Shown piece by piece: positions 1-64,000 of a DNA stretch of 64,000 bases (the first letter of the stretch is position 1; each line of letters begins with the position of its first letter). The stretch lies in assembly GCA_000092065.1 (NCBI GenBank), contig CP000585.1; one strand, 5' to 3'. The notes beneath the pieces are model-generated. The model saw nothing but the letters and a program-made list of their open reading frames with translations. It ran no database searches and had not been told where the DNA came from. Origin of the DNA: Ostreococcus lucimarinus (Eukaryota). The position numbers and the translations under genes are program-made.

Positions 1-3000
1 AGCCCAAGCTCGACACTAAACCGACGAGGTATCGATCGCTTATGGTGGCGTATAAAACCCCGTAATCTGAAGGCGGTAGCGTCGAGTCAATTCCACAGAA
101 ATCCGGCGCAGCGGTTGGGAAAGAGGGCGACGTCGGAGTCACTTCCCACAAATTCGCCGTCGGCGTCGATCCTAGCGTCATGTTTAAGCCGATGTACGCC
201 GACGTGTTGAAATCCAAGATCTCGACCATGGTCTCAGGTGTGAGATGAAAGCCGCGCGGTATCACGTTTGCGAACTGGATACTCCCTTGACCGTTGGTGA
301 TGACGCCGGCGAGCGCGGCGCAATGCGCGTTGGTGAGCGTCGCCACCAAGTCTTGCGAAACCGTCTTCGCCTTCAGCGGGCCGAGTCTAGTGAACTCCGT
401 CGTGATAGTCATCTTGGCCGTGCACGTGGATGCTGCTGCTGCTGTGTTGAGCGACTGTGCGAGAGCTAGTTTCGAACTTTGCGGCAAAATCCAAGCGCTT
501 TGAGAATACTTTGGAAACCGCACGCAGTCGGAGTCAATGCTGCGAAAGGAAAGACCTCTGAGAAGTTCTGACTTCATTGCCTCTTGCGAGATCGAAGACA
601 TCCCGTAACCGGTCGCGAACCCAGAGTATATCCTGTGACGCTCCGTCTTTTCATCCGCGTAGAAGTCTAATTGCACCTGCATCGTCGCAGCTTCTATTCT
701 GTTGCTCGTCAACGCCGGATTGAATGTGCTAAAGATGAAAATCGGCCCGGTGAGCAACAGCATGATGATGGCGATGATGCCGCCGCCGAGTAGAATCTTA
801 AGGGGCCAAGGCACAGGTTTTGCTCCGCTGTAATACTGGCGTCTGTTCCGTCTCCACGAGATGAGCATGTCCGTTTTGTGCAACAGGTAGTAAAGCGTCT
901 CGTACCGGAACCACATGACGTAATCTATGCTCGTGTCGCACACGACCCAGTCCAAAAGAGTTCGTATTTCGAACAAGAATGGCAACGTGTTGATGAGGTT
1001 GTACACGAATCGTCCTACAGGGGTATTCCCGAAACGCATGAGGACGATTTTGAACTGATACCCCTCCCTAAAACCTTCTCGAAGTTGCAACGCGCTGACG
1101 ATGAATTGGAAGAGCATCAAAACCGTAAACGCCTTGAGATGCGAGTTATGTCGCGGAGACACGAATGAACGCGTGTCCAGTAACGGAAGGAAAATGAAAA
1201 CCAGTGAGACGTATAGCACGACTTGTGCAAAGTGCAAGTAGAACTTCAACTTGATGTTCTGCGAAAGATACACCAAGCGCATCACAATTATCCACATCAC
1301 AGACGACACGATGGAAATCGTCAGTCCCGTTCCAAAGGACTCCGTCGAACTCAGCGCCGTGCCAGACTCGAAGACTAAGTTACGGTAACCCGTGACAAAC
1401 CAACAAGTAATGATTAATTGTAAGAAAATCTCCAAGGAGTAAAGGTCGACGCCCGGTTTGCCGACATTCCTTTTCGGCATTTTGGCGGAATTGCTAAGAC
1501 AAATCTGCGTCACCAATTCTCTGAAACGAGTTTGTGCAACGTGTATACCCCTAGTGAAGAGGCCGAACGTCCTCATATACGCCCTTCTCCGTTCACGTCG
1601 TCTCAAAGCACGAGTGCGTTCCTTACTAGTGCGTCCTTCTAGATGGTGCGTCTCGACTTGCCGTGTTTTTCCTGTCGCGACATCCTCAAGCGGCGGCGAC
1701 GTCAACGCCGCCAAGTCGATGTCGTCCTTGAATTCACCAGCATGGTACGTCTGATAATCTTCTCGAGGAGCTAGCGGGATGGCATCGCGCCTCGTGCATT
1801 GACCCAAACTATGCATGTGTGACATGTGTAAGACGAGCGTGACAATGAGAAATATGTCTGTCCAGACTTCATCGCGAACCAAATTTCGAGCGCGTGGGAC
1901 GGTGAGAAGAGTCGCACTCAACGTGCTAAACTCACTGTCCGCGGCCGGGTCATACAACGTCATCGTCGGACAATACGGTTGCGCACTGATGTACCACTTG
2001 TTGCGGTTGTCAAACTTTGCGTTCGCATCAAGTTCCATGCAGAACGCCTTGCTTCGGAGCAAAATCCGTGCGTAAAAGCACGCGACGGAATACCAGAAGA
2101 TGAAACGCCACATCTCCGGCAGTGGCTGCGGATTCCACATCGCCGCGAACGCCAAAATGAAGATCACGAGACATGCACTCATCAAATCGACGTGATCGAT
2201 GAAGTTACACACCAAAGCGATGTACAACAAGCGCTCGCTTTGAGAATAGATGATCTTTCCGAAGCCGGTAATGATATTCGCGCCGCCCCAGTCTCCTTTT
2301 CGAGTCCACTCGCTTTCGCCGCCTTTGTCGTTGGGCAACGGATATAGCGCGGGATCGAGCAAGTAAGCGGCAGAATTTCTCGCAGCGTGGACAACCTTGG
2401 CAACGCCATTTATCAACTTGTCTTTGCCCGATAAAACCTCTTCACCTTCCTCGTCGTCTTGCGGCATTGGCATGGTGACGACGTCGGATGGCTCTGACGG
2501 AGGTCCGTAACCAATCGACCTTGAACACGATTGCACGGTGAAGGAGTAGCTCATACCCGGAGTTAGACCAGAGATCACATGTGATGACGGTGCCCGTGAC
2601 TCTGCATCAACGTCCACTTTCACTGGGTTCACGTGATGTGGAAATATCGTTGTCCGCGGCGAACGCTCGCGCTTTATAGTGAATTGTTCGATGTCGTCAG
2701 TCGAGCCGCGCATCTTCCACTTCACCTCGACGGTGGTTGAGTTTTGTGCCCGCACAGTGACATGTTCAGGAACATATTTTTCCGCCGCCGTCTCTTCGTC
2801 GATTGTGTGCCTGAACTTTTGGAAATGAGTCCATTCAGACGCTTGCAAGGCGCTCGCTCGAACTTTGTCGGTGATCATTTTGTACTCTTCATCAATCTCC
2901 TGTTGAATCTTTGCTCGCCATCCAAGAATGTATTTGCGATACAAGATGGAACGGCGAGCACGCTTGTCCATTGCGTTTTTTTCTAATCGCAAGACTTCAC

Positions 3001-6000
3001 GGACGTATCGTTCGTTGGAGAAAAGTTGCGCTTGAACCGAGCAAAGAATGAATAGCGCGACGTCGACGCCTATGGAACCAGAGCTGTAACCCAACACAGA
3101 CACACAGTCTGCAGCGAGCATGGTAGCGTCACACGCCGAGCCGAGTTTACGGACACCGAACAAGGAGTTAATTGTTTCGCACATGCGCGTACCCACAACA
3201 CATGACCCAAGTCGCGCAGTGCGACCATTGAGAAGTATCGGCTTGATATAGGGGATCTGATACACAAGTTTCGCCGCGAGGACGGTGAAGACGTACACGG
3301 GCAAGAGACGGAACAACTCGCCATTCCACCATTTGTGGGCGCGACTCGGGAATATTCGAGTGTTTATTCGCAACTCATTGAAGCGCATCGAAAACAAAAT
3401 CGTGATTCCCGCATAGCACAGTGATATGAAATCACTATCGTGCTGCGCCACGGCAGCCGTCGTAGTGAGAATAACGATGACCAAAAGTAGATACTTGTAG
3501 AAGAACTTCAAGAAGAATTGACCCATGATCTCTTCAATTCTCCGTCGCACAGTCGTTCGTCGCTCGTGAATCGCCATCGAAGCGATTTGGCTGAAAGTGT
3601 AGTGCTCTTGAATGACTTGCAATTCTTCCTTAATTGAAACTTGCCTCGATAGATTTCGATTCGTCCAATTGGCGCGCTTCATTTCTTCCCTTTGAAGGTC
3701 TGCGTCCACGCTCGGAACGTACTCTTGGAGTTGCACGTTTACCGCGTCCCATCGCTTTATTTTGTCATCGTAGGAAAGTTCTGATGTTTCATCGAGCTTG
3801 CGCCGTTCTGCGAGGCGAGTATTGACTTTGTTTGCGAGAGATGTAAACGCCTCTGACTGCACCCACTCGCTACCCATCTTTTGGCCTTTCGCTTTCACGT
3901 AGCCGCGCATCCATGCCGTGCGGACGTCGTCCCGAACCATGTTTTTGTGTCCTTTTCGCACGTAATGTCCCACGAGTAACATCACGAGGATGTCAGATAT
4001 TATTTCGTACTCATGTACAAAAACTGGCCTCGAGTTGCAATCCAAATACGCTGACGGCGCAGGCGCTGCGGCAGCGGAGGACGGACAGTCCCAAATATCG
4101 AGCCAAAACCGTTTTTCAGGGCACGTCTCACAGTAATTTGTATTGAGCCAACTCGGCGGCAGGCGCAAGGCGGCCATGATGTGTATCGCCAAGATGGCGC
4201 CGATGATGAGAAGTATTGCGTAACCTTGAGACTGAAATCTCACAACTCCTGCGCGATTGTTGAAGGCCAAAAAGTATCCAAGGATGATGATATATATAGA
4301 ACTCGTCACATCTGATTTTAAGAAGGCATTGATCAGTAACACGGCCATCGCGAGCAGATACTTCAAGCTCGCGAGCTGCTCAATCGCGGAATCTAGTGTC
4401 TCGAAGGTATTCTTGACATCCCACTTCACGAATCGATAAACCATCCTTATGACGATTGGGCGCCATCCGTACAGTGCGATTTTACTTTTGCTATGCTTCA
4501 AACTCCCGGCATTCACCTGTTTGACGAGATTGGCGAATATATCTTCTTCTGCGCGAATCGGCGTCTGCTGCACCATGGGGGACATGCCTTCATCCGTCGT
4601 GACGATTTTCTTCTTGCCCACTGGCGTTTCGATGTTTTTGTTTTTCATGCGCTCGGCGACGATGAGCAATTTCAACTTCTTTGCCACATCGCATCCCTGA
4701 ACTTCACCGCGAAGCTTTGCCCAATAACTCGCTCGCGGAACTGCGGTCGCCGTCGTCGATTTTGCTTTCCGTTGCACCTTGACATTGTGTCGTCTCTGCA
4801 AGAATCCGTGTAAAACGGCGAAAATGATCACCGCATAATGCGCTCCAAAAATGTACCAGTTTGTCGTAAAAGTCAAGCACGCTTGCGTCGGGAACTGGTT
4901 TGATGATGACGCCGCAACACTAGCATCCTGACAAAATGTCTTGGTGGAATCGAGAACGTAAGGCCACGCACAACAACTCGTGGTGGTTTGCAAGTCATCG
5001 CCGAGACGTGGATCGTAAAGTGAAATCAAGCCAAGCCAACTCCCCCAATTTTCGTTTACTAACGTGTTCAGCGATCCCGATTGGAAGATCGTCAAGAGCG
5101 TGAGCTGTTTGAACACGATGGAAATCGTCGCCAGTAGAGCCAAATAAAATCCGTAGTCATTCACCTCAGTGTGAATTGATACTGGCGCGGCATGATGATA
5201 GTCTGATTCCCTCAGGTGACGCCTGAACCACCCAGACGATCCAGATGGACTGCGCCTTGTCTGAATCGGCGGCGGCGTTATGTCGGCGGCCGTGATAACA
5301 TTGCTTCGTATCCGACGCATTCGGTTCAAGAATCGCCATGAATCCGTCAAAATTCTCATCGACGTTCCAATGACGCTAAAAGTTCCATACCGAAGCGGTA
5401 CGGGAGCCTTGCCGCGGATTGTTGGCACAGCGAGTTCTATGCATGCAAACATTATAACCACGACGTAGAGCATACTCACGACTTCGACTCGAAACGCCAC
5501 ACAGATTGTTGCCACGAGTAAAAGCAGCTCCATGGATACGCCGTGTAACGCGGATTCGAATTCATCACCTACCGAGTCTTTCACGTGCTTTAATACCGTA
5601 GCGGTAGCGTGATACAGAAAGATAGACGGACGCATGGTGTTGATGTCCTCGACCTTCGTCGACTCGGATTCCTTACTCATATCGAGACGACGAATCGGTG
5701 TTCCCTCAGGCAGCCCATCTTCGTACCAGTCACTGTCGTAATCTTCACTATCGCGCTGCAAACGCTCGTTAAGCCAGTAATACAACATCACGCACATGAC
5801 CAGTGTAAGGTAACGCGGCCACATGTACTTCCAAGAAAGGAGCGCCGGCGTCTGCAGTAAACCAAAGTCGAGCGGGGTGAGCTGTCGACTCAAACTACTC
5901 GGCCACGCGTCCATGAGACTACCGGCGACCTCTGGTATGTTATAGACGTACAAAAGCGAGATGTACACGTACTGAAATGCGATATAATACCAAAGCGTAT

Positions 6001-7081
6001 TTCGCAAACGCACCAGCCACTTATCTTGGAACTTCTTGGCGTCAACATCGGCGCCTCTCGTACCACTGAGGTTTCTCGCTGACGCCAGCATTCGCAAAAT
6101 GGTCACCAAAACTGTGACTATGTCCACAACTTGAATCATACTCATGGGCAATCCTCCAACGGTTGCTAAACCAGTGAACGTGATTGCGGCGGCTAAGATT
6201 GGAGCGTAGAGCAAAGGTCGATACCCTCCCACGCGGACTCTGAATCCCATCAGCTCTTGAAACTTGAATGAACTATCTATATCGCCGTGTGACACAGCCA
6301 AGGCGAAGCATGCGTTGGCCAACAGAGCGAAAATGAACCCAACAGTTTGCGCCGGTTTCATGCAACAAAGCCGTCCATTCCTACCCAAGGTCCAAAAGCC
6401 AAAGATGTTTGCGACTTTGGACGTTTCTAATTCCTGCGACGTCGCCCCGAGCGAAGTAAACACATACGACCCGAATATGATCAATCCCGTCAGGAATTGC
6501 ATTTTACCCGTGGTTGAAATTGCGTGCTCAAGTCGCGTCAAACGTGACGTGCGTGGATCACCGCGCCCGCCGACGAAACGCGTGTGCACCGCGACGAAGA
6601 GGAGAAACTGCAACACTCCGTTTGCCGAGTATCCCACGACGCCGCAACAAATGAAACCGAGCAGACGCCACCATTTCTGTATCGTATTCCGCAAATCTTC
6701 CTCTGTCAGCCCGACGACGAACATCAAACCTCGTCGCAAGTACTTCGCAATCGCTGTGGTTCTTCTCGACCCGCCAGCCTCCAAATGAGCCAACTCTCGT
6801 CTCAATTCGCCTCGCGCCCACAGCGACGTCAAAGCCACGAACGCATCCGGAATGAGCGAACGCGTGCCGACCGTCGCTTCATCGAACTTTTGCAACCCGA
6901 ACACTTCCAGCCATTTCGTTGGGACTCGTTCCGCCCCGATCGCGGCGTACGACGTTTGAAAAACGACCTGCACGAACAAAAATCCTCCGGCGACGAACGT
7001 CGTAAACGTCACCGCCTTTGTCGACCGTAACACCGCCCTCGCCACCGGTCGCGTCGACGCGCACAGCGCGAGGTAACACAT
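1..7081 (-). CDS. Piezo-type mechanosensitive ion channel homolog. The C-terminus is truncated by the left window edge. The gene appears intronless and is about 2360 codons long in the window.
   Basis: The minus-strand frame (codon high coordinate = 1 mod 3) is continuously open. It starts at ATG 7081-7079, just after an in-frame TAG at 7102-7100, and runs down to position 2 with no stop. It was hand-translated in full over 2-601 and spot-checked near 982, 2578, 3002-3061, 5821-6000 and 7021-7129. It encodes many hydrophobic helices. The Piezo anchor hallmark PFLFEIRTLLDW = PF(X2)E(X6)W lies at 947-982. It is followed by WVVCDTSIDY...KPVPWPLKILLGGGIIAIIMLLLTGPIFIF (outer-helix-like) and then a cap-like domain that runs off the window. 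The track lists no competing ORF of 60 aa or more here in either the minus phase or the plus phase antisense to it over most of 500-7100. The gene itself is absent from the supplied track. Confidence 0.8.
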   Translation of the reverse strand, partial: MCYLALCASTRPVARAVLRSTKAVTFTTFVAGGFLFVQVVFQTSYAAIGAERVPTKWLEVFGLQKFDEATVGTRSLIPDAFVALTSLWARGELRRELAHLEAGGSRRTTAIAKYLRRGLMFVVGLTEEDLRNTIQKWWRLLGFICCGVVGYSANGVLQFLLFVAVHTRFVGGRGDPRTSRLTRLEHAISTTGKMQFLTGLIIFGSYVFTSLGATSQELETSKVANIFGFWTLGRNGRLCCMKPAQTVGFIFALLANACFALAVSHGDIDSSFKFQELMGFRVRVGGYRPLLYAPILAAAITFTGLATVGGLPMSMIQVVDIVTVLVTILRMLASARNLSGTRGADVDAKKFQDKWLVRLRNTLWYYIAFQYVYISLLYVYNIPEVAGSLMDAWPSSLSRQLTPLDFGLLQTPALLSWKYMWPRYLTLVMCVMLYYWLNERLQRDSEDYDSDWYEDGLPEGTPIRRLDMSKESESTKVEDINTMRPSIFLYHATATVLKHVKDSVGDEFESALHGVSMELLLLVATICVAFRVEVVSMLYVVVIMFACIELAVPTIRGKAPVPLRYGTFSVIGTSMRILTDSWRFLNRMRRIRSNVITAADITPPPIQTRRSPSGSSGWFRRHLRESDYHHAAPVSIHTEVNDYGFYLALLATISIVFKQLTLLTIFQSGSLNTLVNENWGSWLGLISLYDPRLGDDLQTTTSCCAWPYVLDSTKTFCQDASVAASSSNQFPTQACLTFTTNWYIFGAHYAVIIFAVLHGFLQRRHNVKVQRKAKSTTATAVPRASYWAKLRGEVQGCDVAKKLKLLIVAERMKNKNIETPVGKKKIVTTDEGMSPMVQQTPIRAEEDIFANLVKQVNAGSLKHSKSKIALYGWRPIVIRMVYRFVKWDVKNTFETLDSAIEQLASLKYLLAMAVLLINAFLKSDVTSSIYIIILGYFLAFNNRAGVVRFQSQGYAILLIIGAILAIHIMAALRLPPSWLNTNYCETCPEKRFWLDIWDCPSSAAAAPAPSAYLDCNSRPVFVHEYEIISDILVMLLVGHYVRKGHKNMVRDDVRTAWMRGYVKAKGQKMGSEWVQSEAFTSLANKVNTRLAERRKLDETSELSYDDKIKRWDAVNVQLQEYVPSVDADLQREEMKRANWTNRNLSRQVSIKEELQVIQEHYTFSQIASMAIHERRTTVRRRIEEIMGQFFLKFFYKYLLLVIVILTTTAAVAQHDSDFISLCYAGITILFSMRFNELRINTRIFPSRAHKWWNGELFRLLPVYVFTVLAAKLVYQIPYIKPILLNGRTARLGSCVVGTRMCETINSLFGVRKLGSACDATMLAADCVSVLGYSSGSIGVDVALFILCSVQAQLFSNERYVREVLRLEKNAMDKRARRSILYRKYILGWRAKIQQEIDEEYKMITDKVRASALQASEWTHFQKFRHTIDEETAAEKYVPEHVTVRAQNSTTVEVKWKMRGSTDDIEQFTIKRERSPRTTIFPHHVNPVKVDVDAESRAPSSHVISGLTPGMSYSFTVQSCSRSIGYGPPSEPSDVVTMPMPQDDEEGEEVLSGKDKLINGVAKVVHAARNSAAYLLDPALYPLPNDKGGESEWTRKGDWGGANIITGFGKIIYSQSERLLYIALVCNFIDHVDLMSACLVIFILAFAAMWNPQPLPEMWRFIFWYSVACFYARILLRSKAFCMELDANAKFDNRNKWYISAQPYCPTMTLYDPAADSEFSTLSATLLTVPRARNLVRDEVWTDIFLIVTLVLHMSHMHSLGQCTRRDAIPLAPREDYQTYHAGEFKDDIDLAALTSPPLEDVATGKTRQVETHHLEGRTSKERTRALRRRERRRAYMRTFGLFTRGIHVAQTRFRELVTQICLSNSAKMPKRNVGKPGVDLYSLEIFLQLIITCWFVTGYRNLVFESGTALSSTESFGTGLTISIVSSVMWIIVMRLVYLSQNIKLKFYLHFAQVVLYVSLVFIFLPLLDTRSFVSPRHNSHLKAFTVLMLFQFIVSALQLREGFREGYQFKIVLMRFGNTPVGRFVYNLINTLPFLFEIRTLLDWVVCDTSIDYVMWFRYETLYYLLHKTDMLISWRRNRRQYYSGAKPVPWPLKILLGGGIIAIIMLLLTGPIFIFSTFNPALTSNRIEAATMQVQLDFYADEKTERHRIYSGFATGYGMSSISQEAMKSELLRGLSFRSIDSDCVRFPKYSQSAWILPQSSKLALAQSLNTAAAASTCTAKMTITTEFTRLGPLKAKTVSQDLVATLTNAHCAALAGVITNGQGSIQFANVIPRGFHLTPETMVEILDFNTSAYIGLNMTLGSTPTANLWEVTPTSPSFPTAAPDFCGIDSTLPPSDYGVLYATISDRYLVGLVSSLG
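2520..2810 (-). other. Fibronectin type III-like module embedded in the Piezo homolog
   Basis: The translation is ...PEHVTVRAQNSTTVEVKWKMRGSTDDIEQFTIKRERSPRTTIFPHHVNPVKVDVDAESRAPSSHVISGLTPGMSYSFTVQSCSRSIGYGPPSEPSDVV. This is the classic FN3 pattern of W, Y-x-V, LxPGxxYxFxV and a GxGxxS tail. The segment VISGLTPGMSYSFTVQSCS was verified at 2521-2580. Confidence 0.5.
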
Positions 7082-7147
7082 AATGTAACAACACGACACC
7101 TACATCGCGGCATCGCCATTCATCAGTCTTTCACTCTTCGCTCGCGA

Positions 7148-7204
7148 ATTGTTCGCGTTCGCGTTCGCGTTCGCGTTCGCGTTCGCGTTCGCGTTCGCGT
7201 TCAT
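7148..7204. repeat. (GTTCGC)n hexanucleotide microsatellite, about 9 copies
   Basis: Read directly as gttcgcgttcgcgttcgc.... It lies in the putative Piezo 5' flank. Its translation gives the FAFAFAFA artefact ORF 7149..7622. Confidence 0.9.
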
Positions 7205-7578
7205 ACCAAATCACACCGCGCCGTCGACGCCGCGATCAGCGCCGCGCCGTGCACCGCCCTCGACATCGCCATCAGCGCGTCCGCGTCGGACAGCGACACC
7301 GATGCGTCGTCATCGGCTCCATCGTCGTCGGCTCCATCGTCGAAACTCAAACTTTTATTCGTCGTCGTCGCTCGATCCGCGCGCGACGACGACGCGCGCA
7401 TCGACGACGCGACGCGCGCCAACATGGTACTTTCGCGCTCGCCCCGCGCGCCGCGCTCGCGCGCGCGCGTGTGCGGCGCTTTCGAAAGATGACGAGTTAG
7501 TTGGTTGGGTGAAAAAGGAATTTCAAACTCTGGAGCGACAAAACGCGAATACAGTTACAACAACAAAGATGATAAATA

Positions 7579-8834: not shown

Positions 8835-9956
8835 ATGGACGCGAACGCGAACGCGACGCGCGAGAGGGACGCGCCGGACGCCGTCGCGGACGCGGCGTGC
8901 GACGTCGAGCGACGCGCGCACGTGATCAGTGGACGCGTGGCGCAGTTGGATTCAAACATGAAGTCGCTGAAACTTGAACTCTCGGCGCTGAACGATGCGC
9001 TGATGGACATGGAGGGGAAAGCGAAGGAGGGGGACGGGGCGTACGATACGATGGAGACGCGCGCGGCGCTGTACGGCGCGAGACGGGTGATACAAGGCGC
9101 GGGACCGGGTGGAGACTTGTACGGGTACATGAAGCCGAAGACGACGCACTCGCGGTTTCTGCGACTGTTCGTCGGGGGAGCGGTGGAGATCAATTCCGTG
9201 AGACAAGAGGCGAGATTGCGGTTGAAGGAGGAGTATTATCACTTTCGCGATCAAAATACGGTGGTTTACGTGTTGGCGCCGTTGGCGTTGTTGCTCGGAT
9301 ACAGCGAACGCGTGCACCCGAAGGCGCTGGACGCGACGCAGATTGGATACTTGAGGGCGTTTTATCCGATCGCACTGCAGCTGTATTGGGTGTGGCTTTT
9401 GTACTTTTACACCGCACTCGCGCTGCGGGAGAACATTTTGCGCGTGAACGGGTCGACGATTCGTCCGTGGTGGATTAAGCACCACTACTATTCGGCGGCG
9501 ATGGCGCTGTGCGTGTTGACGATGGATTTAGATTCGCCCGCGTGCGAGGCGTTCACTTTGAGATTCTTACTCTTCACCACGCTTCAGGGAGTGGTGATGT
9601 TAGTCCAAAATAGATACCAGCGTTTCCGCTTGTACACGCGCGTGGCGATGGGGAAAGCGTCGCCCATGGACGTGGCGTCGATTGAACTCTCGGGCGGACA
9701 GCTCAAGCTTTTGTACCCACTCCTGTTCGGTTTGCAGGCGATGCAACTGTACGTCGGCGCGAGCGTGCTGTTCGTGGTCATGACGACGTATCGCATAGAA
9801 AGCCACATCATGCGAGAGTGGCAAGCGTCCGTGGCGGGCGTCTTATTCGTTCTCATGGCGGTTGGCAACTTCACCGCCACGCTCAACACGCTGCGATCCA
9901 AGCGCTCATTCGCGCACAAGAAGCGGACTCGCAGCCAAAGTTTTCATCAGGATTAA
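8835..9956 (+). CDS. TMEM120 / TMPIT (TACAN) family membrane protein
   Basis: 373 aa. The N-terminus is coiled-coil-like (LKLELSALNDALMDMEGKAKE) and is followed by multi-pass hydrophobic segments. It carries the conserved WWIKHHYYS motif and FLLFTTLQGVVMLVQNRYQR, as in TMEM120 proteins. Confidence 0.7.
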   Translation: MDANANATRERDAPDAVADAACDVERRAHVISGRVAQLDSNMKSLKLELSALNDALMDMEGKAKEGDGAYDTMETRAALYGARRVIQGAGPGGDLYGYMKPKTTHSRFLRLFVGGAVEINSVRQEARLRLKEEYYHFRDQNTVVYVLAPLALLLGYSERVHPKALDATQIGYLRAFYPIALQLYWVWLLYFYTALALRENILRVNGSTIRPWWIKHHYYSAAMALCVLTMDLDSPACEAFTLRFLLFTTLQGVVMLVQNRYQRFRLYTRVAMGKASPMDVASIELSGGQLKLLYPLLFGLQAMQLYVGASVLFVVMTTYRIESHIMREWQASVAGVLFVLMAVGNFTATLNTLRSKRSFAHKKRTRSQSFHQD

Positions 9957-10021
9957 AACAACTTTAGCGCACTGTCAGTTTATTCACTGCACTACTACCA
10001 TTATAATTACTCCTTACATAA

Positions 10022-11989
10022 CTACAGCTCGTCGCGGCTCGCGATCTCCGGATCCAGGTTTGGCTTGATGTTCGCCAGCCCCTCCGGAAGCGGCAAGAAA
10101 AACTTGTGATCGCCGCACGTTTGCATGATTTGATACACGGATGACCATATATAACTGTTCGCCTCTTGAAACTGCCTGAGCATCCACGTGCGAACGATAG
10201 CGACGTGGTACGGGTTGATGTTGTGCACACCATCTTGAGGATCGAACGGCAGTAATACGCCTTCTCTTCGCGTCTGAGCCACGGCGATGACGTAATAATC
10301 TCCTGAACTTGTCGCTTGAATCAACATCCGCTGAATCGTATCGTAATCAACTTCGACGCCCGGATGGTGGTACAGCGTCCAAGGAGTGTCCCACGTCGCG
10401 AGTCTCGGATATTCATCGGTGGTCACGGTGAAGAGCGGTCTAGTTTTGTACGTGTCGACTTGGCTCCACGGTGTACGCTTTGCGTGCGCAATCTTGGCTT
10501 CGCCGAGGAGAGATTCGAACTTTGTAAAGACCGCGCTCAAGGAAAGCTCTTCATCGATCCACTTGTACACGTCTTCGACCAGAGGAAGACTTGCCGCGCC
10601 CGTGGCAATAGCCGTCAAAGCCGCGGCGCCGCCCGGTACGCTCGGCGCTGCGAAATACGCACCTTGTATCGATTCACGTGCCCCAATTTCGACCGCTAAC
10701 CCATATTTGGTGTAATCGCGCATCGCGGTGTAGTTCGTCGTCACTACGGGCGTACCCAGCGCTTGGCACTCGAGGACGACCATGCCGAAACCTTCCGATT
10801 TCGACGTGTGCAAACACACGTCGGCGTGTCTTTTCAGTGCCGACGTGAAAACCTTGTCGTGCAAATTCTCATCCAGCGTGTACATGTTCGATGGAATTTG
10901 TGCGCGTTGAAGCGCGGCACGTAGGGATATACCCGTTCGCAAAACCGCGACGGGCGGCTTGCTCTTGTGGTTCAGATCGTTTTGCGTCATAGCGCTGTCC
11001 ACCGTATGAATCCAGAGGTGCGTCTTTAATTTCGGGTTCGCTCGTTGAAATTCAGCGAACGCGTTGATTGACGCCACCCATCCTTTCCTGTCAGAGTTTT
11101 CGTAGTTGCCACCTTGCATGAGCACCAAGAAGGTGTCGTCGTCGACTTCGTCGATGCTCCTCGAGAACATTCTGTCGTACTTTTTAGAATCAAACACCGC
11201 GCGGCGAATGACTTTGCGTCTATTTTTGACATCGTCGGCGATTTTCAGTTTCGTCTCGAAAGAGTCCGCGAGCGCGTTGAGCGACGCGCGATCGATAAAA
11301 TGAGGAATCGTGCGCGTGAGCGGCTGCTCCGTCGCGATCGCGCGACCCGTGGTGTCGGACAACGCCGCCACGCCCGAGTACGTCCGGACCACCGCCACCG
11401 ACGCGTCCGCTTCTTCGTGGTGATACGGCATCCACAAAACCACGGGCACGGCGAAATCGTACCCATCGAAATACATTTGTCCGATATCCATGAGCAACAC
11501 GAAGGCGTCCAGTCGGTGCGTCGACGACGCCTCGTTCACCTGCTTCATCGTCATCGACAGCTCGTTTATCCGCGCGTACGGCGCGTGCACGTCCGGCACG
11601 CCCAAAAACGTCAGGTGCTCCATCGCCTTTTGCTCCGCTTTCGTCGGCGCGCGCACGTCGCCCGCGAAGCGTTCGCGAGCGCGGCGCCAATCCGCGTACT
11701 CGCCCGGAGGCAACCGCACCCCCGGCACGCGCGGCATCCAAAACGTCTCGTACCCATTATCCGCGAACGCTTTAGAGAGTCCCAGCGCCTGCGCCTGGTA
11801 CGCGCCGAACGTCCACGGAACCGTCGCCGCGACGAAGCACACGCGCCGATCGTCCGCCGCGCCCGCGCTCGCCGCGTTCGCCCCCCCCCCGCGACGTCCC
11901 CACAGCGCGTCCGCGCGCGTGACCCCGCTCGCGATCGCCCACGCGACGCACGCGACGACGACGATCGCCCGCGCGCGTCGCGTCGCCAT
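10022..11989 (-). CDS. GT1-family glycosyltransferase with an N-terminal signal peptide and a C-terminal RDEL ER-retention motif
   Basis: The ORF 10022..12118 carries an Arg-rich upstream extension. The likely true start is MATRRARAIVVVACVAWAIASG at 11989. It has the GT1 C-terminal catalytic motif HTSKSEGFGMVVLECQALGTPVVTT (E-x7-E). The protein ends ...IASRDEL. Confidence 0.7.
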   Translation of the reverse strand: MATRRARAIVVVACVAWAIASGVTRADALWGRRGGGANAASAGAADDRRVCFVAATVPWTFGAYQAQALGLSKAFADNGYETFWMPRVPGVRLPPGEYADWRRARERFAGDVRAPTKAEQKAMEHLTFLGVPDVHAPYARINELSMTMKQVNEASSTHRLDAFVLLMDIGQMYFDGYDFAVPVVLWMPYHHEEADASVAVVRTYSGVAALSDTTGRAIATEQPLTRTIPHFIDRASLNALADSFETKLKIADDVKNRRKVIRRAVFDSKKYDRMFSRSIDEVDDDTFLVLMQGGNYENSDRKGWVASINAFAEFQRANPKLKTHLWIHTVDSAMTQNDLNHKSKPPVAVLRTGISLRAALQRAQIPSNMYTLDENLHDKVFTSALKRHADVCLHTSKSEGFGMVVLECQALGTPVVTTNYTAMRDYTKYGLAVEIGARESIQGAYFAAPSVPGGAAALTAIATGAASLPLVEDVYKWIDEELSLSAVFTKFESLLGEAKIAHAKRTPWSQVDTYKTRPLFTVTTDEYPRLATWDTPWTLYHHPGVEVDYDTIQRMLIQATSSGDYYVIAVAQTRREGVLLPFDPQDGVHNINPYHVAIVRTWMLRQFQEANSYIWSSVYQIMQTCGDHKFFLPLPEGLANIKPNLDPEIASRDEL

Positions 11990-12568
11990 CTCGAGTCGAG
12001 ACGAGCGTCGCGTTCTGCGGCGTCGCCCTCGCGTCCCGCCCGCGTCCCGCCCGCGTCTCCGTCTCCGCCGCGTCTCCGTCTCCGCGCGCGCCTCAAAATC
12101 CGTTATCGCACTCCCCAAAGTAATCGTGCGTCGCCCACGTCGCCCTGTCGCCGTCGTCGCTCGTCGCGATCGCCCTCGCCGCGTCCGCGATGGCTTCGGC
12201 GCACGCGCTCAAGCTCTCGCCCTCGTCCGGCTCCACGTCGACGCACCACGCCTCGCCGTCGCCCACGGGCGCGCACCGCGCGACGTTTCGTCGCCCGATG
12301 GCGCGCTCGACGACGCTCACCGCGTCCGCGCCGCGCGCGCCGCGCGCGATGCGCGCCGACACCCGACACCGCGCGGCGTCGGCGTCGACGCGAACGCGCA
12401 GCGACCGCGCGCGCGCGTCGACGTCGTCGAGCGTCAGCGGACGCGCGTCGCGCTCGACGCGCGCGTCTCCGCGCGCGCGCGCGTCGCGCTCGACGACGAC
12501 GACGAATCGAGGCGTCATGGGCCGGGCGCGACGCGACGTGACGGCACACGCGCGCGCGAGCGACGGCG

Positions 12569-15424
12569 ATGGCGACGACGGCGACCGGGACGACGACGAC
12601 GACGCGGGCGGGCGTCGCGCGCGCGCGGCGCGCGCGCGCGACGGCGACGCGTCGAACGGCGACGCGCGTCGGGAGGGGCGTCGAAGACGCGCGACGCGAT
12701 GACGAAGCCTCGGCGCGACGACGAGGGCGCGCGGTCGCGCGCGCGAGCGCGGGCGCGGGCGGGAGCGGAGGGAAGAAGATAAGCCAGAATGAGTTCACGG
12801 CGCGCGCGTGGGACGCGATCGTGCGGGCGCCGGAGGTGGCGAAACAGAGCAAACAACAAATCGTGGAGACGGAGCACGTGTGCGAGGCGCTGTGCTCGCA
12901 AAAGGACGCGTTCGCGATGCGGATATTCGCCCAAGCGGGAGTGAAGGATTTGAAATTAGTGATATCGAGAACGCGTGATTTCATCGCGGGGCAGCCGCAG
13001 GTGAGCGGGGCGGCGCAACAGGTGCTGGGGAGGTTTTTGGAGTCGCTCGTGGACGACGCGCGGACGATTTCGAGCGGCATGTCGGACGAGTTCGTGGCGG
13101 TGGAACATTTGGTGCTCGCGCTGGCGCGAGACGAGAGATTTGGGAAAGGATTGATGGCGGATTTGGGGATCACGTACGCGAATCTCGAGGCCGCGGTGAT
13201 CACGCTGCGTCGGGGAGAGAACGTGACGGATCAAGACGCCGAGGATAAGTACGAGGCGCTGAAAAAGTACTCGCGGGATTTGACGGAGGAGGCTCGGGCG
13301 GGGAAGTTGGATCCCGTCATCGGCCGAGACGATGAAATTCGTCGCACGATTCAAATCTTAAGTCGTCGCTCGAAGAATAATCCGGTGTTGATCGGAGAAC
13401 CCGGGGTAGGGAAGACGGCGGTGGCGGAGGGACTGGCGCAACGCGTCGTTCGAGGCGACGTCCCGACGTCTCTCCAAGACGTGAAAATCATGTCATTGGA
13501 CATGGGTTTGCTCATCGCCGGCGCAAAGTTTCGAGGGGAGTTTGAAGATAGGCTAAAGGCGGTGATGAAGGAAGTTTCCGACTCCATGGGGAAAATTATC
13601 CTTTTCATCGACGAGATTCACACCGTCGTCGGCGCCGGAGGCGGAGGCGGCGGGGGCAACGGCATGGACGCGGGTAACTTGCTCAAACCCATGCTCGGGC
13701 GAGGTGAGCTGCGATGCATCGGAGCAACGACGTTGGATGAGTATCGCACGTACATCGAGAAAGATCCCGCGCTCGAACGTCGATTCCAACAAGTTATAAT
13801 CGCGCAGCCGACGGTGGAGGACACGATCAGTATCTTGCGAGGTTTACGCGAACGCTACGAGCTTCATCACGGGGTCTCGATCTCTGATTCTGCCTTGGTC
13901 GAAGCGGCGACGCTCAGCGACCGATACATCGCCGATCGCTTCTTGCCGGACAAGGCGATCGATCTCGTAGATGAGTCCGCAGCCAAGCTCAAGATGGAAA
14001 TCACGTCGAAACCGACGGTTTTGGATGAAATCGATCGCGAGATTTTGAAACTTCAAATGGAGAAGATATCGTTGTCGCGACCAGGCGCTTCGCGAGACGC
14101 GCGCTCGATCCAATCCAAAGTTGAGAAGCTCGACAGCGATCTGAAGGCGCTCACCGAAAAGCAGTCGGTGCTCAACGATCAATGGCAAGGTGAACAAAAC
14201 AAGTTGAAGGCGATTCAGACTTTGAAGGAAGAAATTGATTCGGTTACGAACAGCATTCAGCGCGCCGAGCGTGAGTATGACTTGAATAAAGCGGCTGAGT
14301 TGAAGTACGGTACGCTCATGACGTTGCAGCGAAGACTAAACGAGGCAGAGGAAGTGCTCGAGCTCGCTACTTCGGAGGGACCGACTCTTTTGCGCGACGA
14401 AGTCACCGAGGCCGACATCGCGGACGTCATCTCCAAGTGGACCGGTATTCCCGTCGCCAAGCTCCAGCAAGGCGAGCGGGAAAAACTTCTTGATTTACCC
14501 GCCGAACTTCACAAGCGAGTCGTCGGCCAAGATGAAGCCGTGCAGTCTGTGTGCGAGGCTATTCAGCGCTCTCGCGCGGGTCTCTCTGACCCGAACCGCC
14601 CGATTGCGAGTTTCATGTTCCTCGGCCCCACGGGCGTGGGTAAAACGGAGCTGTGCAAAACATTGGCAAACTTTTTGTTCAACACCGAGGAAGCGATGAT
14701 TCGCATCGATATGAGCGAGTATATGGAAAAACACTCTGTGAGTCGCTTGATTGGCGCTCCGCCCGGGTACGTCGGTTTCGAGGAAGGCGGTCAACTCACC
14801 GAGGCGGTACGACACCGTCCGTATTCTGTCGTACTTTTCGACGAGATGGAAAAAGCACACGGTGATGTTTTCAACGTATTGCTTCAGATTTTGGACGATG
14901 GTCGCGTCACCGATTCGCAAGGGCGTTTGATCAACTTCAAAAACACTATTCTCATCATGACGTCAAACATCGGTAGTCAATATGTGCTCGACACCAACGA
15001 AGCTTCGAAAGAAACTAGACGCGAGCGTGTGATGGATGCTGTGCGTGGACACTTCCGACCGGAGTTCATCAACCGTGTGGACGAGTGGATCGTCTTTGAT
15101 CCGCTTGCGAAGGATCAAGTCACCGCCATCGTTCGACAACAAGTCGAACGCGTCACCTCCCGTCTCGCTGATCGTAAGATTGGACTCCGAGTCTCCGACG
15201 AAGCCGTTGCGTTACTCTCCGACACCGGCTACGACCCCGCATTCGGCGCTCGTCCCGTGAAGCGCGCGGTGCAGAGCTTATTAGAAACCGCCGTAGCCCA
15301 AGCCATCCTTCGAGGCGACGTCAACGAGGATCAAACCGCCGTCGTCGACGTCGACCCGTCGTCCACGGGGAAGCTTGTCGTCACCGCAAAAGATTCTCCC
15401 AAGTCTGCAAACGTCATCGCATGA
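12569..15424 (+). CDS. CLPB: ClpB/Hsp104-type AAA+ disaggregase chaperone. An organellar form is suggested by the N-terminal presequence.
   Basis: 951 aa. The Clp N-domain reads [18 protein letters not shown]. It has two AAA modules (GEPGVGKTA, Walker [10 protein letters not shown]; second [20 protein letters not shown]) separated by a long coiled-coil middle domain. The C-terminal domain reads [10 protein letters not shown]. Confidence 0.92.
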
Positions 15425-15458
15425 CCGAGCACTGATTCTTCTCTCGCACTCGCATTGG

Positions 15459-15463
15459 TGTAA
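15459..15463 (+). terminator. TGTAA poly(A) signal candidate 35 nt after the ClpB stop
   Basis: UGUAA is the usual green-algal poly(A) signal. The motif lies at the expected distance downstream of TGA 15422-15424. Confidence 0.4.
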
Positions 15464-15481
15464 TACGCAAAGCCTTCATTT

Positions 15482-17047
15482 TTGACTCCTCGCGCCTTCG
15501 AACCGCACTTCGCGCCGCGAACGCACCGCGCACAATGGGCGAAGACGACGATGAATGGCGCTCGCGCGTCAATCGCGACGAGAACCGCGAGGAACTGTGC
15601 GTTTCGAAGCGTGGTGCTCCCGAGCGACGACGAACCGCGCGCGCAAAGTCAATCATCAATCATCTGGAATTGTCGACGAAAACGCGCCGACGGGCGAAGA
15701 CTGACCGCGCACGCATCGTCCGCGCTCGACAGCATGACCGCGATGCTCTCCGCGAAAGATCCGCCCTACGCGGACGCGGTCGTCACGAACGCTAGGGTGG
15801 CGGCGACGAAGCTGGAGAAGATGCTGTTCGAAAAGTGCAAGAGCGAAGAGTCGTACAAGCGCAAAGTTTTAAACAAAATAGAGTCGATCTCGGAGAAGAT
15901 CATACGCGACAGGGCGCAAAAGAATATGGAAGCGCAAGGCTTAAAAATGGCGGAAGCGCCGGCGAAGCGGGCGAAGACGGAGGGTGTGGGAGGTGGCGAA
16001 GCGGCTTCGACTTCGACGGCGCGTTCGCCGTACGAAGAGGGGCGAGCGTATTTTGAAGCGTTGTCGCCGGTGGATCAGAAAACCATGCGAAGGGACATCT
16101 TGAAGCGATGGTTGGAAGAGAATAAAGGGAAGACGGCGATCGCAAACGAGTTTCAATCGACCGAAGACGCGCAGGTGAGGAGGCAGATTTACGTTAACAA
16201 GCTCAAAGATCACCTCGATTTGCACATGTTCAAGTCGTTGACGAATCAGTTACGGGCGCAGCGTCCGACGATAATCAATCCCGAGCTTCAAGGATTTGTC
16301 GCCGATCTCGTGGCGACGGATGCGATGGCGATGCAAGCGGAAACTAAGCGTCAAGCCATCGCCGCCGCCACCAAGTCGTCGACGGTTCAACCTACGTCAG
16401 AGTATTGGCTCAAGGTGCACGAGTTGCACGAAAAATATCACGCCACGCTTAGCCGGGCGCTGAAGAATATTCAAAGCTTGACGAAGAGCGGAGAAAAGCT
16501 ATCAGCGATTCGACAAAAGTTTGTCGACTTGCTGTCCAAGGTAATCTTGCCCGCTATCGAGCAAACTCCGAACAATCGCAACTTGAACGTCGAGGCGACG
16601 GTGACGCATCTCGAGGAAATCGAGCGATCGATCAAGAAAGCGTTGTCATCGTACGACGTGCACGCACAGCGCATGCAAGACCAGAAACGTTTGTTGACGA
16701 TGGCACCGACGCAACGCGCCATCGTATCTCTCACCGAAGGCGTGGAGAACAAGAACAGAACCGACGCTCGTGCCGCCATCGCCGAGACGTGCTCGAAATT
16801 AAACATCGATTTCGACGACTTCACCGCCGATCTGTTCGACTCGGACGAGGAAGAAGACGAAGCGATCGACGTGAACGTACTCTTAAAGGACGTCTTCGCG
16901 AGCGCGGGTGATCAGGCACTCGAAATCGTCCCCGCGGGCGCGCCCGAAACCTGGACGCTCGAGCTCGGCAAGGACGTCGTCGCCGTCGGGTTTCGCGGCG
17001 ACGCCATGTCTGAAACCGAGCGCATCGCCACCGTCGCCGAGTATTAA
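15482..17047 (+). CDS. Nuclear protein with a KIX-like N-terminal region, possibly Mediator Med15-like. The start is probably internal, for example MTAMLSAK.
   Basis: 521-aa ORF. The segment ARVAATKLEKMLFEKCKSEESYKRKVLNKIESISEKI resembles a KIX helix bundle. There is an acidic C-terminal stretch DSDEEEDEAID. No strong enzymatic motif was seen. Confidence 0.35.
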   Translation: MTPRAFEPHFAPRTHRAQWAKTTMNGARASIATRTARNCAFRSVVLPSDDEPRAQSQSSIIWNCRRKRADGRRLTAHASSALDSMTAMLSAKDPPYADAVVTNARVAATKLEKMLFEKCKSEESYKRKVLNKIESISEKIIRDRAQKNMEAQGLKMAEAPAKRAKTEGVGGGEAASTSTARSPYEEGRAYFEALSPVDQKTMRRDILKRWLEENKGKTAIANEFQSTEDAQVRRQIYVNKLKDHLDLHMFKSLTNQLRAQRPTIINPELQGFVADLVATDAMAMQAETKRQAIAAATKSSTVQPTSEYWLKVHELHEKYHATLSRALKNIQSLTKSGEKLSAIRQKFVDLLSKVILPAIEQTPNNRNLNVEATVTHLEEIERSIKKALSSYDVHAQRMQDQKRLLTMAPTQRAIVSLTEGVENKNRTDARAAIAETCSKLNIDFDDFTADLFDSDEEEDEAIDVNVLLKDVFASAGDQALEIVPAGAPETWTLELGKDVVAVGFRGDAMSETERIATVAEY

Positions 17048-17079
17048 TCGCTTCATTAGTTCGTGAATATACAAATGTA

Positions 17080-17511
17080 CTACTTTCTCCCACTACTTCC
17101 TTCCCCATCGTCCGGGTCGTGACACGCGTGCAACCACGCGCGATCCGCCACCTGCGTCGGCTTTGCTCGCTCGCACTCGTCCACCAACCGTCCGTTTCTG
17201 TAAAACGCCACCGTCGGCGTCCATCGCACCGCGCGCGCCGTGAACGGCAGCGCGTCCACGTCCGCGTCCACGAACGCGACCTCGCCGCCCCAGCGCTCGC
17301 GCAGCGCGTCGATCGCGGGCGTCAACTTTGCGCAGTGTTTGCACCACTCGGCGCCGTAGTTGACGACCAACAGCCTCGATTTATGCGTCCTGAGCGCGTC
17401 CGCGAACGCCGCCTCGCTCTTGATCACCGCGCGCGCGGTCGCGCCGTCGCTCGTCGACGCCTCGGCCGCGCTCGCGCGACGCATCGCGCGCGCGACGCGA
17501 GATGGCGCCAC
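17080..17511 (-). CDS. Thioredoxin with a WCKHC active site, probably organelle-targeted
   Basis: 143 aa. The motif is LVVNYGAEWCKHCAKLTPAIDAL followed by FVDADVD...TPTVAFYRNG, the thioredoxin fold order. The N-terminus is Arg/Ala-rich and presequence-like. It converges on the upstream gene with a 33-bp gap. Confidence 0.8.
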   Translation of the reverse strand: MAPSRVARAMRRASAAEASTSDGATARAVIKSEAAFADALRTHKSRLLVVNYGAEWCKHCAKLTPAIDALRERWGGEVAFVDADVDALPFTARAVRWTPTVAFYRNGRLVDECERAKPTQVADRAWLHACHDPDDGEGSSGRK

Positions 17512-17549
17512 ACTTCGGGACGCACCGCCTCGGGACGGCGACGCCTTTG

Positions 17550-18404
17550 ATGGATCACGAACGAGAATTACGCGTCGCCGAGCGCGCGGCGCGCGTCGCG
17601 GGAGCGGAGATCGCGCGCGCGTGGACGCGCGATCGCTCGAACGAGACGAGCGTGGAGTACAAAGGCGCGGTGGATCTCGTGACGGCGACTGATAAACTGT
17701 GTGAAGATTTAGTCTTGAGCGCGCTGCGGGAAGCGTTTCCAGAGGATGATGTCGTCGGAGAAGAGACGCACGCGGCGAGCGGGGCGAAAGAATTGTCGAA
17801 AACGACGTCGGTGAGGTGCTGGTACGTCGATCCGCTGGATGGGACGACGAATTTTGTGCACGGGTATCCGTTTAGTTGCGTGTCGGTGGGGTTGTGCGAG
17901 GGCGGCGAACCGACGGTGGGCGTCGTTTTTAATCCGATATCGGACGAAATGTTCACCGCGGTGCGAGGACGCGGGGCGTTTTTGAATGGGAAGAAAATTT
18001 CGTGCAGTGCGGTGCGAACGCTGGGGAAGGCGCTGATCGGAACGGAGATTGGCGTGCACAGGGACGGGAAGACGGTGGACGCGATTATGGGTCGCGTGCG
18101 AGCGTTGGTGGAAAAGTCACGCAGCGTGCGGTGCTCAGGGTCGTGTGCGATGAATATGTGCGGCGTGGCGATGGGTAGACTGGATGGGTTCTTCGAGATC
18201 GGGTTCGGCGGACCATGGGATTGCGTGGCGGGAACGATTATTGTGCGCGAAGCTGGCGGCGTCGTGTTCGATCCTTCGGGAGACGCGTTCGACATTTACG
18301 CGCGACGAGTGCTGTGCGCGAATGGAAATATCGGTGATGAATTCGTGAAAGCGCTAAGCGAGGTCCCAGATGGGCCGGGGGAACCTCAGCGACCGGAGAT
18401 CTAG
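17550..18404 (+). CDS. Inositol monophosphatase family (IMPase / L-galactose-1-phosphate phosphatase, VTC4-like)
   Basis: ORF 17502..18404. The likely start is MDHERELRVAE at 17550. Motifs are WYVDPLDGTTNFVHGYPFSCVSVGL and GGPWDCVAGTIIVREAGG (WD-x-AG). The two start codons of this head-to-head pair are under 70 bp apart. Confidence 0.85.
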   Translation: MDHERELRVAERAARVAGAEIARAWTRDRSNETSVEYKGAVDLVTATDKLCEDLVLSALREAFPEDDVVGEETHAASGAKELSKTTSVRCWYVDPLDGTTNFVHGYPFSCVSVGLCEGGEPTVGVVFNPISDEMFTAVRGRGAFLNGKKISCSAVRTLGKALIGTEIGVHRDGKTVDAIMGRVRALVEKSRSVRCSGSCAMNMCGVAMGRLDGFFEIGFGGPWDCVAGTIIVREAGGVVFDPSGDAFDIYARRVLCANGNIGDEFVKALSEVPDGPGEPQRPEI

Positions 18405-58637: not shown

Positions 58638-58729
58638 GGCTCGCGTAGGGCTCGCGTAGGCACTAGATACATCGTCGGATTGGCAAAGAATTTGTCGCTC
58701 GCGTAGGGCTCGCGTAGGGCTCGCGTAGG
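58601..58729. repeat. 60-bp unit tandemly duplicated with a 9-bp spacer (69-bp period) across the HSD stop codon. Each unit holds three ctcgcgtagg sub-repeats.
   Basis: catcgtcggattggcaaagaatttgtcgctcgcgtagggctcgcgtagggctcgcgtagg occurs at 58601-58660 and identically at 58670-58729. The HSD stop TAG is at 58635-58637 in copy 1. Confidence 0.9.
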
Positions 58730-58805
58730 AGATATAACTATGCATCACAAACACGAATATTTGCGCTAGCGGTCTCTCGATCGATTGTTTTCCATTCGTT
58801 GATAT

Positions 58806-63373: not shown

Positions 63374-63845
63374 ACGAATGGTGAAAGCGTCGAAACCTAG
63401 AAACCTAGAAAGAGGTGAAACTGAATTTGAAAGATATAGAATGCAAAGCGATTCACCCACGTCGCCGTCGTCGTCCCGCGTCGTCTCCCAGCGCGCGTCG
63501 CCGCACTCGCCTCCCTGAAACTAGGGCTAGAAACTAGGGTTAGCAGTTTCTCTGGAACATGACGCTTTTGCCGCCCTGGAAGTTGCGCGAGTAAAGGGGT
63601 CACCAAAACCACTACACTGGCGGTCGACGACGTTGGAATTTTGCGTACACGCAGGAAACACGCATTTGCATCTGTGTACGCGCGCGTTTCGCGAACCTCT
63701 GGGTGCCGGCGGCGACCCGGACCTTCACGTCGTCGCGGGCGTAGGCCGCGGTTTGGGTTTTTTTGGAAATGTGTGATGGTGGTTTTGGGTTGAGACTACG
63801 TTAGTGAGGGCGGGGTAAACTAGGGTTTGGAGGACTAGGGTTCGG
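63374..63845. repeat. Short subtelomeric region with degenerate telomere-like motifs (aacctag, ctagggctag, aaactagggttag, ggtttgg) and no recognisable gene
   Basis: Read directly. Motif density rises toward the perfect array. Confidence 0.6.
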
Positions 63846-64000
63846 GTTTAGGGTTTAGGGTTTAGGGTTTAGGGTTTAGGGTTTAGGGTTTAGGGTTTAG
63901 GGTTTAGGGTTTAGGGTTTAGGGTTTAGGGTTTAGGGTTTAGGGTTTAGGGTTTAGGGTTTAGGGTTTAGGGTTTAGGGTTTAGGGTTTAGGGTTTAGGG
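63846..64000 (+). repeat. Telomere: (TTTAGGG)n, about 22 perfect copies, running off the window
   Basis: The perfect tttaggg array has the G-rich strand 5'->3' toward the end, as expected for a right chromosome terminus. This is the Arabidopsis/green-algal-type telomere repeat. Confidence 0.95.

Follow-up and report, generated by a model that had tools for sequence, protein, structure and literature searches.

A probable Piezo-type channel gene of two coding exons, with an inserted fibronectin type III domain, in Ostreococcus lucimarinus

What is encoded by a very long open frame that runs off the edge of the sequence in hand? The question is raised by one end of a 64,000-nucleotide stretch of Ostreococcus lucimarinus DNA (contig CP000585.1, assembly GCA_000092065.1; this whole stretch is called the window below), where an initial annotation had described a 7-kb intronless gene for a Piezo-family mechanosensitive channel on the minus strand. 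We found that this locus is very probably the single Piezo-type channel gene of this Ostreococcus, a picoplanktonic green alga of the Mamiellophyceae, with two coding exons and a product of about 2531 residues whose architecture, by homology, is that of a Piezo. We also found an embedded fibronectin type III (fn3) domain, a feature that the initial annotation had missed.

Assignment of the open frame to the Piezo family

Translation of the minus strand from ATG 7081 to position 2 gave 2360 codons with no stop, confirming that the frame is uninterrupted. No other stop-free stretch of the window is as long: with the six codons before this ATG it has 2366 codons, and the runner-up has 1104. The probability of so long an open frame by base composition is ~1e-48. 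The frame had been reported as missing from the accompanying list of open reading frames (ORFs). It is truly unlisted, but this is no anomaly, because the frame runs past position 1 and the lister reports only ORFs that lie wholly inside the source.

Domain searches, with residue numbers counted in the frame starting at ATG 7081, placed the C-terminal part of the product in the Piezo family. The Pfam family Piezo_THU9_anchor (PF24874) matched residues 1878-2118 over its full profile (1-238 of 238; 120.1 bits, cutoff 28, E 1.3e-34), and Piezo_cap (PF12166, formerly Piezo_RRas_bdg) matched residues 2182-2357 with 43 bits against a cutoff of 26.9. The second match spans profile positions 32-211 of 298, in agreement with the earlier view that the window edge severs the cap; the domain is complete in a closely related protein (P0001). 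The anchor motif PF(X2)E(X6)W lies exactly where it had been placed. Its sequence, PFLFEIRTLLDW, is the sole match to this pattern across six frames, and the motif was found in most full-length homologues. The outer helix proposed to follow it, LKILLGGGIIAIIMLLLTGPIFIF, was also recovered, and a basic, partly disordered loop separates the eighth four-helix unit (THU8) from the ninth (THU9).

The inner pore helix and the C-terminal domain lie outside the window. About 100 further codons had been predicted past position 1, and the actual number is 92, as supplied by P0001 (99.5% identical) and by a metagenome contig, L001 (99.6% nucleotide identity over 12 kb). Here the alignment to mouse Piezo1 continues up to residue 2515. 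At the position of mouse Piezo1 E2496 the protein likewise has a glutamate (...FVNEI...).

Sequence and structure searches led to the same family. When phmmer was run against PDB sequences, only Piezo chains were matched (best E 9e-15), and a profile of 11 orthologues matched mouse Piezo1 (5z10) over residues 1863-2515 with E 8e-23, inner helix and C-terminal domain included. Profile-profile comparison (hhalign) with 14 diverse eukaryotic Piezos covered the stretch from THU8 (column 1610) to the C-terminus with a probability of 100% and E 1e-76. AlphaFold (AF2) models were made of the C-terminal 1166 and the N-terminal 1200 residues, from 11-13 aligned sequences each; apart from a Foldseek search with the C-terminal model, only their secondary structure and the fn3 part were used. 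In that search, run against the PDB, the 13 best matches were all Piezo1, Piezo2 or PEZO-1.

Since the Pfam Piezo domains appear only from residue 1613 on, we considered whether the protein might be a chimera or the product of a mis-join, in which an fn3 gene or an unrelated multi-pass membrane protein was fused to a Piezo pore module and only the last ~750 residues are Piezo. A Pfam scan of the N-terminal 1430 residues indeed gave no match, and the sole name on record for the O. tauri orthologue is 'Fibronectin, type III'. Yet a profile of the N-terminal 1360 residues, compared with the N-terminal part of the 14 Piezos, aligned collinearly (2-1351 to 12-1225) with a probability of 95.9% and E 5e-9, so that about 1350 residues follow other Piezo blades. 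Furthermore, the same full-length architecture is present in five Ostreococcus lineages known from independent assemblies, in one O. mediterraneus transcript, in Cymbomonas and in oomycetes. A chimera is therefore most improbable and largely refuted, and the Piezo assignment, judged from these alignments, appears secure for the whole protein and not for the pore module alone.

The layout of the protein (Table 1) is close to that of the mouse and human channels Piezo1 and Piezo2 (PDB 5Z10, 6B3R, 6KG7). The length is similar (~2531 residues here, 2547 there), and the parts follow in the same order, namely blade units and a beam-like helix (both as predicted), THU8, THU9, the PF(X2)E(X6)W-bearing anchor, outer helix, cap, inner helix and C-terminal domain. 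From THU8 to the C-terminal domain the proteins match significantly in sequence, profile and fold, yet identity in the aligned part is only ~16-18%. The Piezo blade is built of nine four-helix units, with 38 helices per subunit (PMC9256749). In the Ostreococcus protein, alignment-averaged hydropathy revealed hydrophobic helices in fours, the first of them interrupted by the position of the intron described below. The beam call is a prediction from secondary structure and position: a long helix is predicted at the expected place, with a low predicted local distance difference test score (pLDDT ~45-57) and without direct sequence match to the mouse beam.

Table 1. Positions of the gene parts, predicted protein regions and neighbouring features within the window
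Feature	Position	Strand	Residues	Description
Coding exon 1	7207..7425	-		73 codons, MLARVASS...STARCDL; cytosolic N-terminal tail and first half of first hydrophobic helix
Intron (read as spliceosomal)	7100..7206	-		107 nt, phase 0; GTATGA...ACTGAT (branch-site-like)...TAG; in-frame stops at both ends
Microsatellite in intron	7151..7202	.		(AACGCG)n / (GTTCGC)n, 8.7 copies
Coding exon 2	1..7099	-		VSCCYIMCYL... onward; 2366 codons in window, cut by edge; 92 codons and stop past position 1
N-terminal blade	3023..7099	-	1-1353	Hydrophobic helices in fours; long Cys-rich loops between third and fourth helix of a group
Beam-like helix (predicted)	2780..3013	-	1357-1434	78 residues, ERYVREVLRLEKN..., directly after last helix of seventh-unit equivalent; AF2 H71-148
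fn3 domain	2480..2770	-	1438-1534	Between beam-like helix and THU8; Pfam PF00041
THU8	1799..2245	-	1613-1761	Four helices; profile aligns to mouse Piezo1 residues 1658-1717
THU9, anchor and outer helix	728..1450	-	1878-2118	Pfam PF24874
Anchor motif PF(X2)E(X6)W	947..982	-	2034-2045	PFLFEIRTLLDW; aligns to mouse Piezo1 PFLVELRAVMDW
Outer helix	731..802	-	2094-2117	Profile alignment; AF2 helix H806-834
Extracellular cap, N-terminal ~three quarters	2..727	-		Pfam PF12166, truncated by window edge
TMEM120/TACAN homologue	8835-9956	+		Pfam PF07851, 217 bits
Tandem duplications, 69-bp unit	58600-58754 and 63121-63261			Exact or near-exact
Telomere repeat (TTTAGGG)n	63836-64000			Plant-type, written TAGGGTT; 23.7 copies, to window end

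Several observations weigh against the Piezo assignment or against its details. The blade that gave no Pfam match in the N-terminal 1430 residues differs in this from the mouse and human proteins, and the Pfam family THU_Piezo1 scored 25.7 bits here, slightly under its cutoff of 27.2; the orthologues exceed this cutoff. The family PF15917 (PIEZO), one of those named in the initial annotation, gave no match at E up to 1, although its model describes a less conserved blade segment and membership is possible without it. Hydropathy gave ~21-24 clear helices before the beam, compared with 28 expected, and no firm count from a single sequence or from the alignment average; the protein may lack one or two N-terminal units, or their hydrophobicity may be too weak for detection. 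At the positions of mouse M2493/F2494/E2495/E2496 the Ostreococcus protein has F/V/N/E by hidden Markov model alignment, so three of four differ and only the last glutamate is common. Finally, the mean pLDDT was low in both AlphaFold models (48.6 for the C-terminal one and 40.9 for the N-terminal one, which was unusable), and for this reason trimer geometry, helix count and fn3 placement were drawn from homology.

Two coding exons and a gene kept across Ostreococcus

Although the Piezo-family call was supported, the gene does have an intron, and ATG 7081 is not its start. Above this ATG, six more codons are open before a TAG at 7100-7102 closes the frame. Upstream lies a further coding exon, whose start, ATG 7425, is the first ATG past the upstream in-frame stop. 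Its frame ends in ...STARCDL and is followed by GTATGA; removal of the intron yields ...STARCDL|VSCCYIMCYLALCAS... at the junction. With both exons and the codons past position 1, the full protein has 73 + 6 + 2360 + 92 = 2531 residues.

Relatives within the genus support this join. One orthologue (P0003, 62% identical) and a relative of it (P0004) are encoded by single continuous, intron-free ORFs that read ...SVARCDLVSACYAGCFLTLSGS... over the junction, and the O. tauri model OUS47755.1 (P0078) reads ...CARCDLVSLSYAVLF... there, with ARCDL|VS.CY unbroken in all three. In O. mediterraneus, a transcript-derived protein (P0105) reads ...VVRVDLVTMTYAVLF..., with VRVDL|VTMTY continuous, and the genomic locus (L007) has 122 nucleotides with stops between both parts. 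This transcript is messenger RNA evidence for the same intron in a congener. The intron occupies the same position in four of five Ostreococcus lineages (that of the window and those of loci L005, L006 and L007), with lengths of 101-130 nucleotides, GT..YAG boundaries in every case and an ACTGAY motif 25-35 nucleotides before the acceptor. The fifth lineage (L004, locus 10001-17674, encoding P0003/P0004) has the N-terminus in one continuous ORF, which represents either intron loss there or intron gain in the other lineages within the genus. On the basis of the GT..AG ends, the branch-site-like motif and the join supported by orthologues and the congener transcript, we read 7100-7206 as a canonical spliceosomal intron. 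Further introns are not expected, because, this intron aside, the O. mediterraneus transcript follows its genomic ORF throughout (97.2% identity over 2433 residues, with a single gap) and the longest private insertion in the window lineage is at most 4 residues.

The microsatellite within the intron is two units longer in the metagenome contig L001, where the intron measures 119 instead of 107 nucleotides; thus, its length is polymorphic. The new N-terminus, MLARVASSMRASSSRA, was also considered as an organelle-targeting peptide, and this was rejected since the extension is conserved neither in sequence nor in charge among the other lineages. In public records, the O. tauri orthologue (XP_022839111.1/CEF98156.1 = P0077; OUS47755.1 = P0078; locus L005) is labelled 'Fibronectin, type III' and not Piezo. 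The RefSeq entry XP_022839111.1 begins 'MQ|VSLSY...', in which MQ corresponds to the last two intron codons at the acceptor, indicating that exon 1 is missing from it; OUS47755.1, from another strain, has exon 1.

Orthologues were found in every Ostreococcus lineage, with 2381-2559 residues, 52-93% identity and no interruption, and some of their clusters have hundreds of metagenome members. The window's own lineage has 335 cluster members and is abundant in marine metagenomes. The window protein is 99% identical to P0001, 93% to P0002 and 52-62% to the proteins of O. tauri and O. mediterraneus, named members of these clusters. For the last species a complete transcript-derived protein of 2498 residues exists. 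The records of these two species (XP_022839111.1/CEF98156.1, OUS47755.1 and the MMETSP transcript UniRef A0A7S0PJP6) represent the same gene, sharing a collinear neighbourhood, the fn3 architecture and the intron position. Gene order is kept in all five lineages: ClpB, GT4 glycosyltransferase, TMEM120, DUF4097, Piezo, VEFS-box, ankyrin protein, ADH, G6PD and DnaJ. Judged by the uninterrupted orthologues and the O. mediterraneus transcript, the Piezo gene is almost certainly functional.

The base composition of the gene could be taken to mean the opposite, namely that it is a decaying or unexpressed relic whose lower GC content reflects relaxed selection or a foreign segment. The gene has 51% GC and 61% GC at third codon positions (GC3), compared with 55-68% GC and 65-80% GC3 in neighbouring genes. 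However, every lineage keeps an uninterrupted frame of ~2400 codons, and hundreds of alignment columns are invariant. In all five lineages (L001, L004-L007), GC and GC3 are lower in the Piezo gene than in any neighbouring gene, one example being 0.51/0.61 against 0.57-0.68/0.68-0.80, and the flanking genes on both sides are normal, which argues against a regional boundary; low GC at first and second codon positions suits a hydrophobic membrane protein. We regard a relic as largely refuted and scarcely credible. A boundary with a low-GC outlier chromosome (51% GC, compared with ~60% elsewhere) was likewise ruled out by the normal flanks and by the same gene-specific low in five lineages. Low GC and GC3 are thus a property of the gene and not of the region, and the low GC may reflect low expression.

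The fn3 domain between beam and THU8

The fn3 domain was detected by Pfam PF00041 with 38.1 bits (cutoff 25; E 1.8e-9). Its model has seven predicted strands with pLDDT ~70, and Foldseek matched it to solved fn3 domains of LAR, titin and other proteins, with target-normalised template modelling scores of 0.70-0.75 and a root-mean-square deviation of ~2.8 Å. All Ostreococcus orthologue clusters (11/11) have it. In mouse Piezo1 the region between beam and THU8 holds the plug, latch and clasp. The disordered loop of Piezo1 also lies after the beam, and Ostreococcus has fn3 instead of these elements. By this domain the lineage differs from animal and land-plant Piezos, the latter judged from one representative. 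The domain is predicted to be cytosolic because both of its ends, the beam and the first THU8 helix, are cytosolic in mouse Piezo1 (PMC9256749). Its most plausible role, as a protein-binding or gating-accessory module, is speculation.

Next, we asked which other Piezos share the domain. When the C-terminal 1200 residues served as query in an exhaustive HMMER search, 773 homologues were returned, with all Ostreococcus sequences in one 50% cluster. The nearest homologue outside the genus is Cymbomonas tetramitiformis KAK3279946.1 (30% identity, E 1e-84). A profile of the Ostreococcus fn3 found the domain right after a beam-like helix in this protein and also in Saprolegnia parasitica (two paralogues), S. 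diclina, Aphanomyces astaci and several further sequences. In KAK3279946.1, in the Saprolegnia proteins XP_012201597.1, XP_012197598.1 and XP_008608165.1 and in Aphanomyces RHY83709.1 it lies a few hundred residues before THU9, as in Ostreococcus. Pfam fn3 scored 47-53 bits in three of these relatives and a borderline 24.6 and 24.7 (cutoff 25) in two more. The fn3-bearing relatives are longer, with 2773-3269 residues. The Cymbomonas gene (locus L008, LGRX02004599.1, 10001-50819) covers ~41 kb with many introns and encodes 3269 residues, whereas the Ostreococcus gene takes ~7.7 kb for 2531 residues, a clear example of gene compaction. A further relative (P0135, a Logan protein) showed a weak PH-domain match after its fn3, at about residues 1700-1800, with 20 bits, below the cutoff. 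If genuine, this match would point to a lipid-binding module that shares the cytosolic linker with fn3.

Land-plant PIEZOs have the C-terminal module and the anchor motif in common with Ostreococcus, at 20-22% identity for P0013 (Tripterygium wilfordii; the Arabidopsis and moss PIEZOs belong to the same group), but P0013 has no fn3 after the beam: neither the fn3 profile nor the precomputed Pfam domains revealed one in this representative. In a neighbour-joining tree from BLOSUM62 distances (258 columns), all fn3-bearers were grouped. With Kimura distances, this split was not recovered, and its bootstrap was 28/200 (14%). From the shared position of the domain, a single origin of the fn3-bearing Piezos is plausible. 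We can go further only tentatively: fn3 after the beam might mark an old, distinct Piezo branch comprising prasinophytes (Ostreococcus, Cymbomonas), oomycetes (Saprolegnia, Aphanomyces) and several protist sequences, in which a cytosolic fn3 module under the pore replaces plug, latch and clasp, though we think it rather unlikely that all of this holds. If true, the module could gate the lateral portals for ions or link the lever to a partner in the cytosol, the Ostreococcus Piezo would not be a simple orthologue of land-plant PIEZO, and fn3 would offer a handle on beam-pore coupling in an organism that is genetically tractable and whose genome is very small.

For algae and oomycetes, the searchable literature held nothing relevant on a Piezo that bears a fibronectin type III domain. 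UniProt and NCBI name the O. tauri, Cymbomonas and oomycete proteins 'Fibronectin type-III domain-containing', so that the domain had been flagged automatically. The initial annotation was fair in calling algal Piezos poorly characterised, but a Piezo in Ostreococcus had been recorded before: O. lucimarinus XP_001418409.1 ('OlPiezo') stands as a Piezo orthologue in the published trees of two plant Piezo papers (PMC6395819, PMC7796506), neither of which mentions fibronectin.

Proposed function, neighbourhood and meaning

The most likely mechanism is the one drawn from homology to the animal channels. Three subunits would form a curved propeller; membrane tension would flatten the blades, the beam would relay this to the pore module, and cations would enter. 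In a wall-less cell of ~1 micrometre, such a channel might serve in sensing osmotic or membrane-tension stress.

A true Piezo homologue might instead act in an internal membrane (vacuole, endoplasmic reticulum or other endomembrane) and regulate organelle shape or ion balance. The Ostreococcus Piezo belongs to the green lineage, and the published version of the moss PIEZO study reportedly places land-plant PIEZOs at the vacuolar membrane and not at the plasma membrane, a point that also weighs against the mechanism above. A preprint on moss PIEZO states, in its title, that PIEZO channels regulate vacuole morphology, and no feature of the Ostreococcus sequence identifies the target membrane. 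On the other side, the rough tree did not group the Ostreococcus protein with the land-plant representative P0013, which makes a transfer of the plant localisation weak; Ostreococcus is not known to have a large central vacuole; and the N-terminal extension, compared among lineages, shows no conservation as a targeting peptide. We therefore hold action in an internal membrane to be possible but the less probable reading, and prefer a tension-gated channel that responds to stress on the cell.

The neighbourhood of the gene was examined as well. ClpB, the Mg-chelatase D subunit (ChlD) and a RelA/SpoT homologue (RSH), all genes of photosynthetic eukaryotes, are among its neighbours; together with the O. 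tauri and O. mediterraneus members of the orthologue clusters they identify the organism as an Ostreococcus. A TMEM120/TACAN homologue lies ~1.4 kb from the Piezo start, with the DUF4097 gene between. In animals, TMEM120A is a modulator of PIEZO2 and has a genetic interaction with the Piezo of C. elegans (PMC9280072, PMC10755168). TMEM120 and Piezo lie close together in all five Ostreococcus lineages, in each of which the whole block is also kept, and no TMEM120 gene was found near the Piezo genes of Cymbomonas and Saprolegnia. Because the whole block is equally kept and the pair is not found in these relatives, the adjacency is probably a coincidence.

The initial annotation had also placed the gene as the most centromere-proximal one of a telomere-adjacent block. 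The telomere part stood: a plant-type array runs to the last base, so that the window reaches a chromosome end. The supposed centromere-proximal edge is merely the window edge, because collinear gene order runs on past position 1. Two tandem duplications lie less than 6 kb from the telomere, and the first of them holds an 11-bp GCTCGCGTAGG triplet.

Collectively, these findings describe an ordinary member of a known family, already noted in the genus, whose extra fn3 is its one unusual feature, and none of them overturns current understanding. Their significance lies mostly in annotation. The gene model needs the upstream exon and one intron, and the public O. tauri records name the protein by its inserted fn3 and not as Piezo, with exon 1 lacking from XP_022839111.1. 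With its full-length Piezo, this naked cell of ~1 micrometre, which ranks among the smallest free-living eukaryotes, provides a compact, nearly intron-free system outside animals and land plants, and in the conserved fn3 behind the beam it offers a concrete point of difference from the well-studied channels that can be tested.

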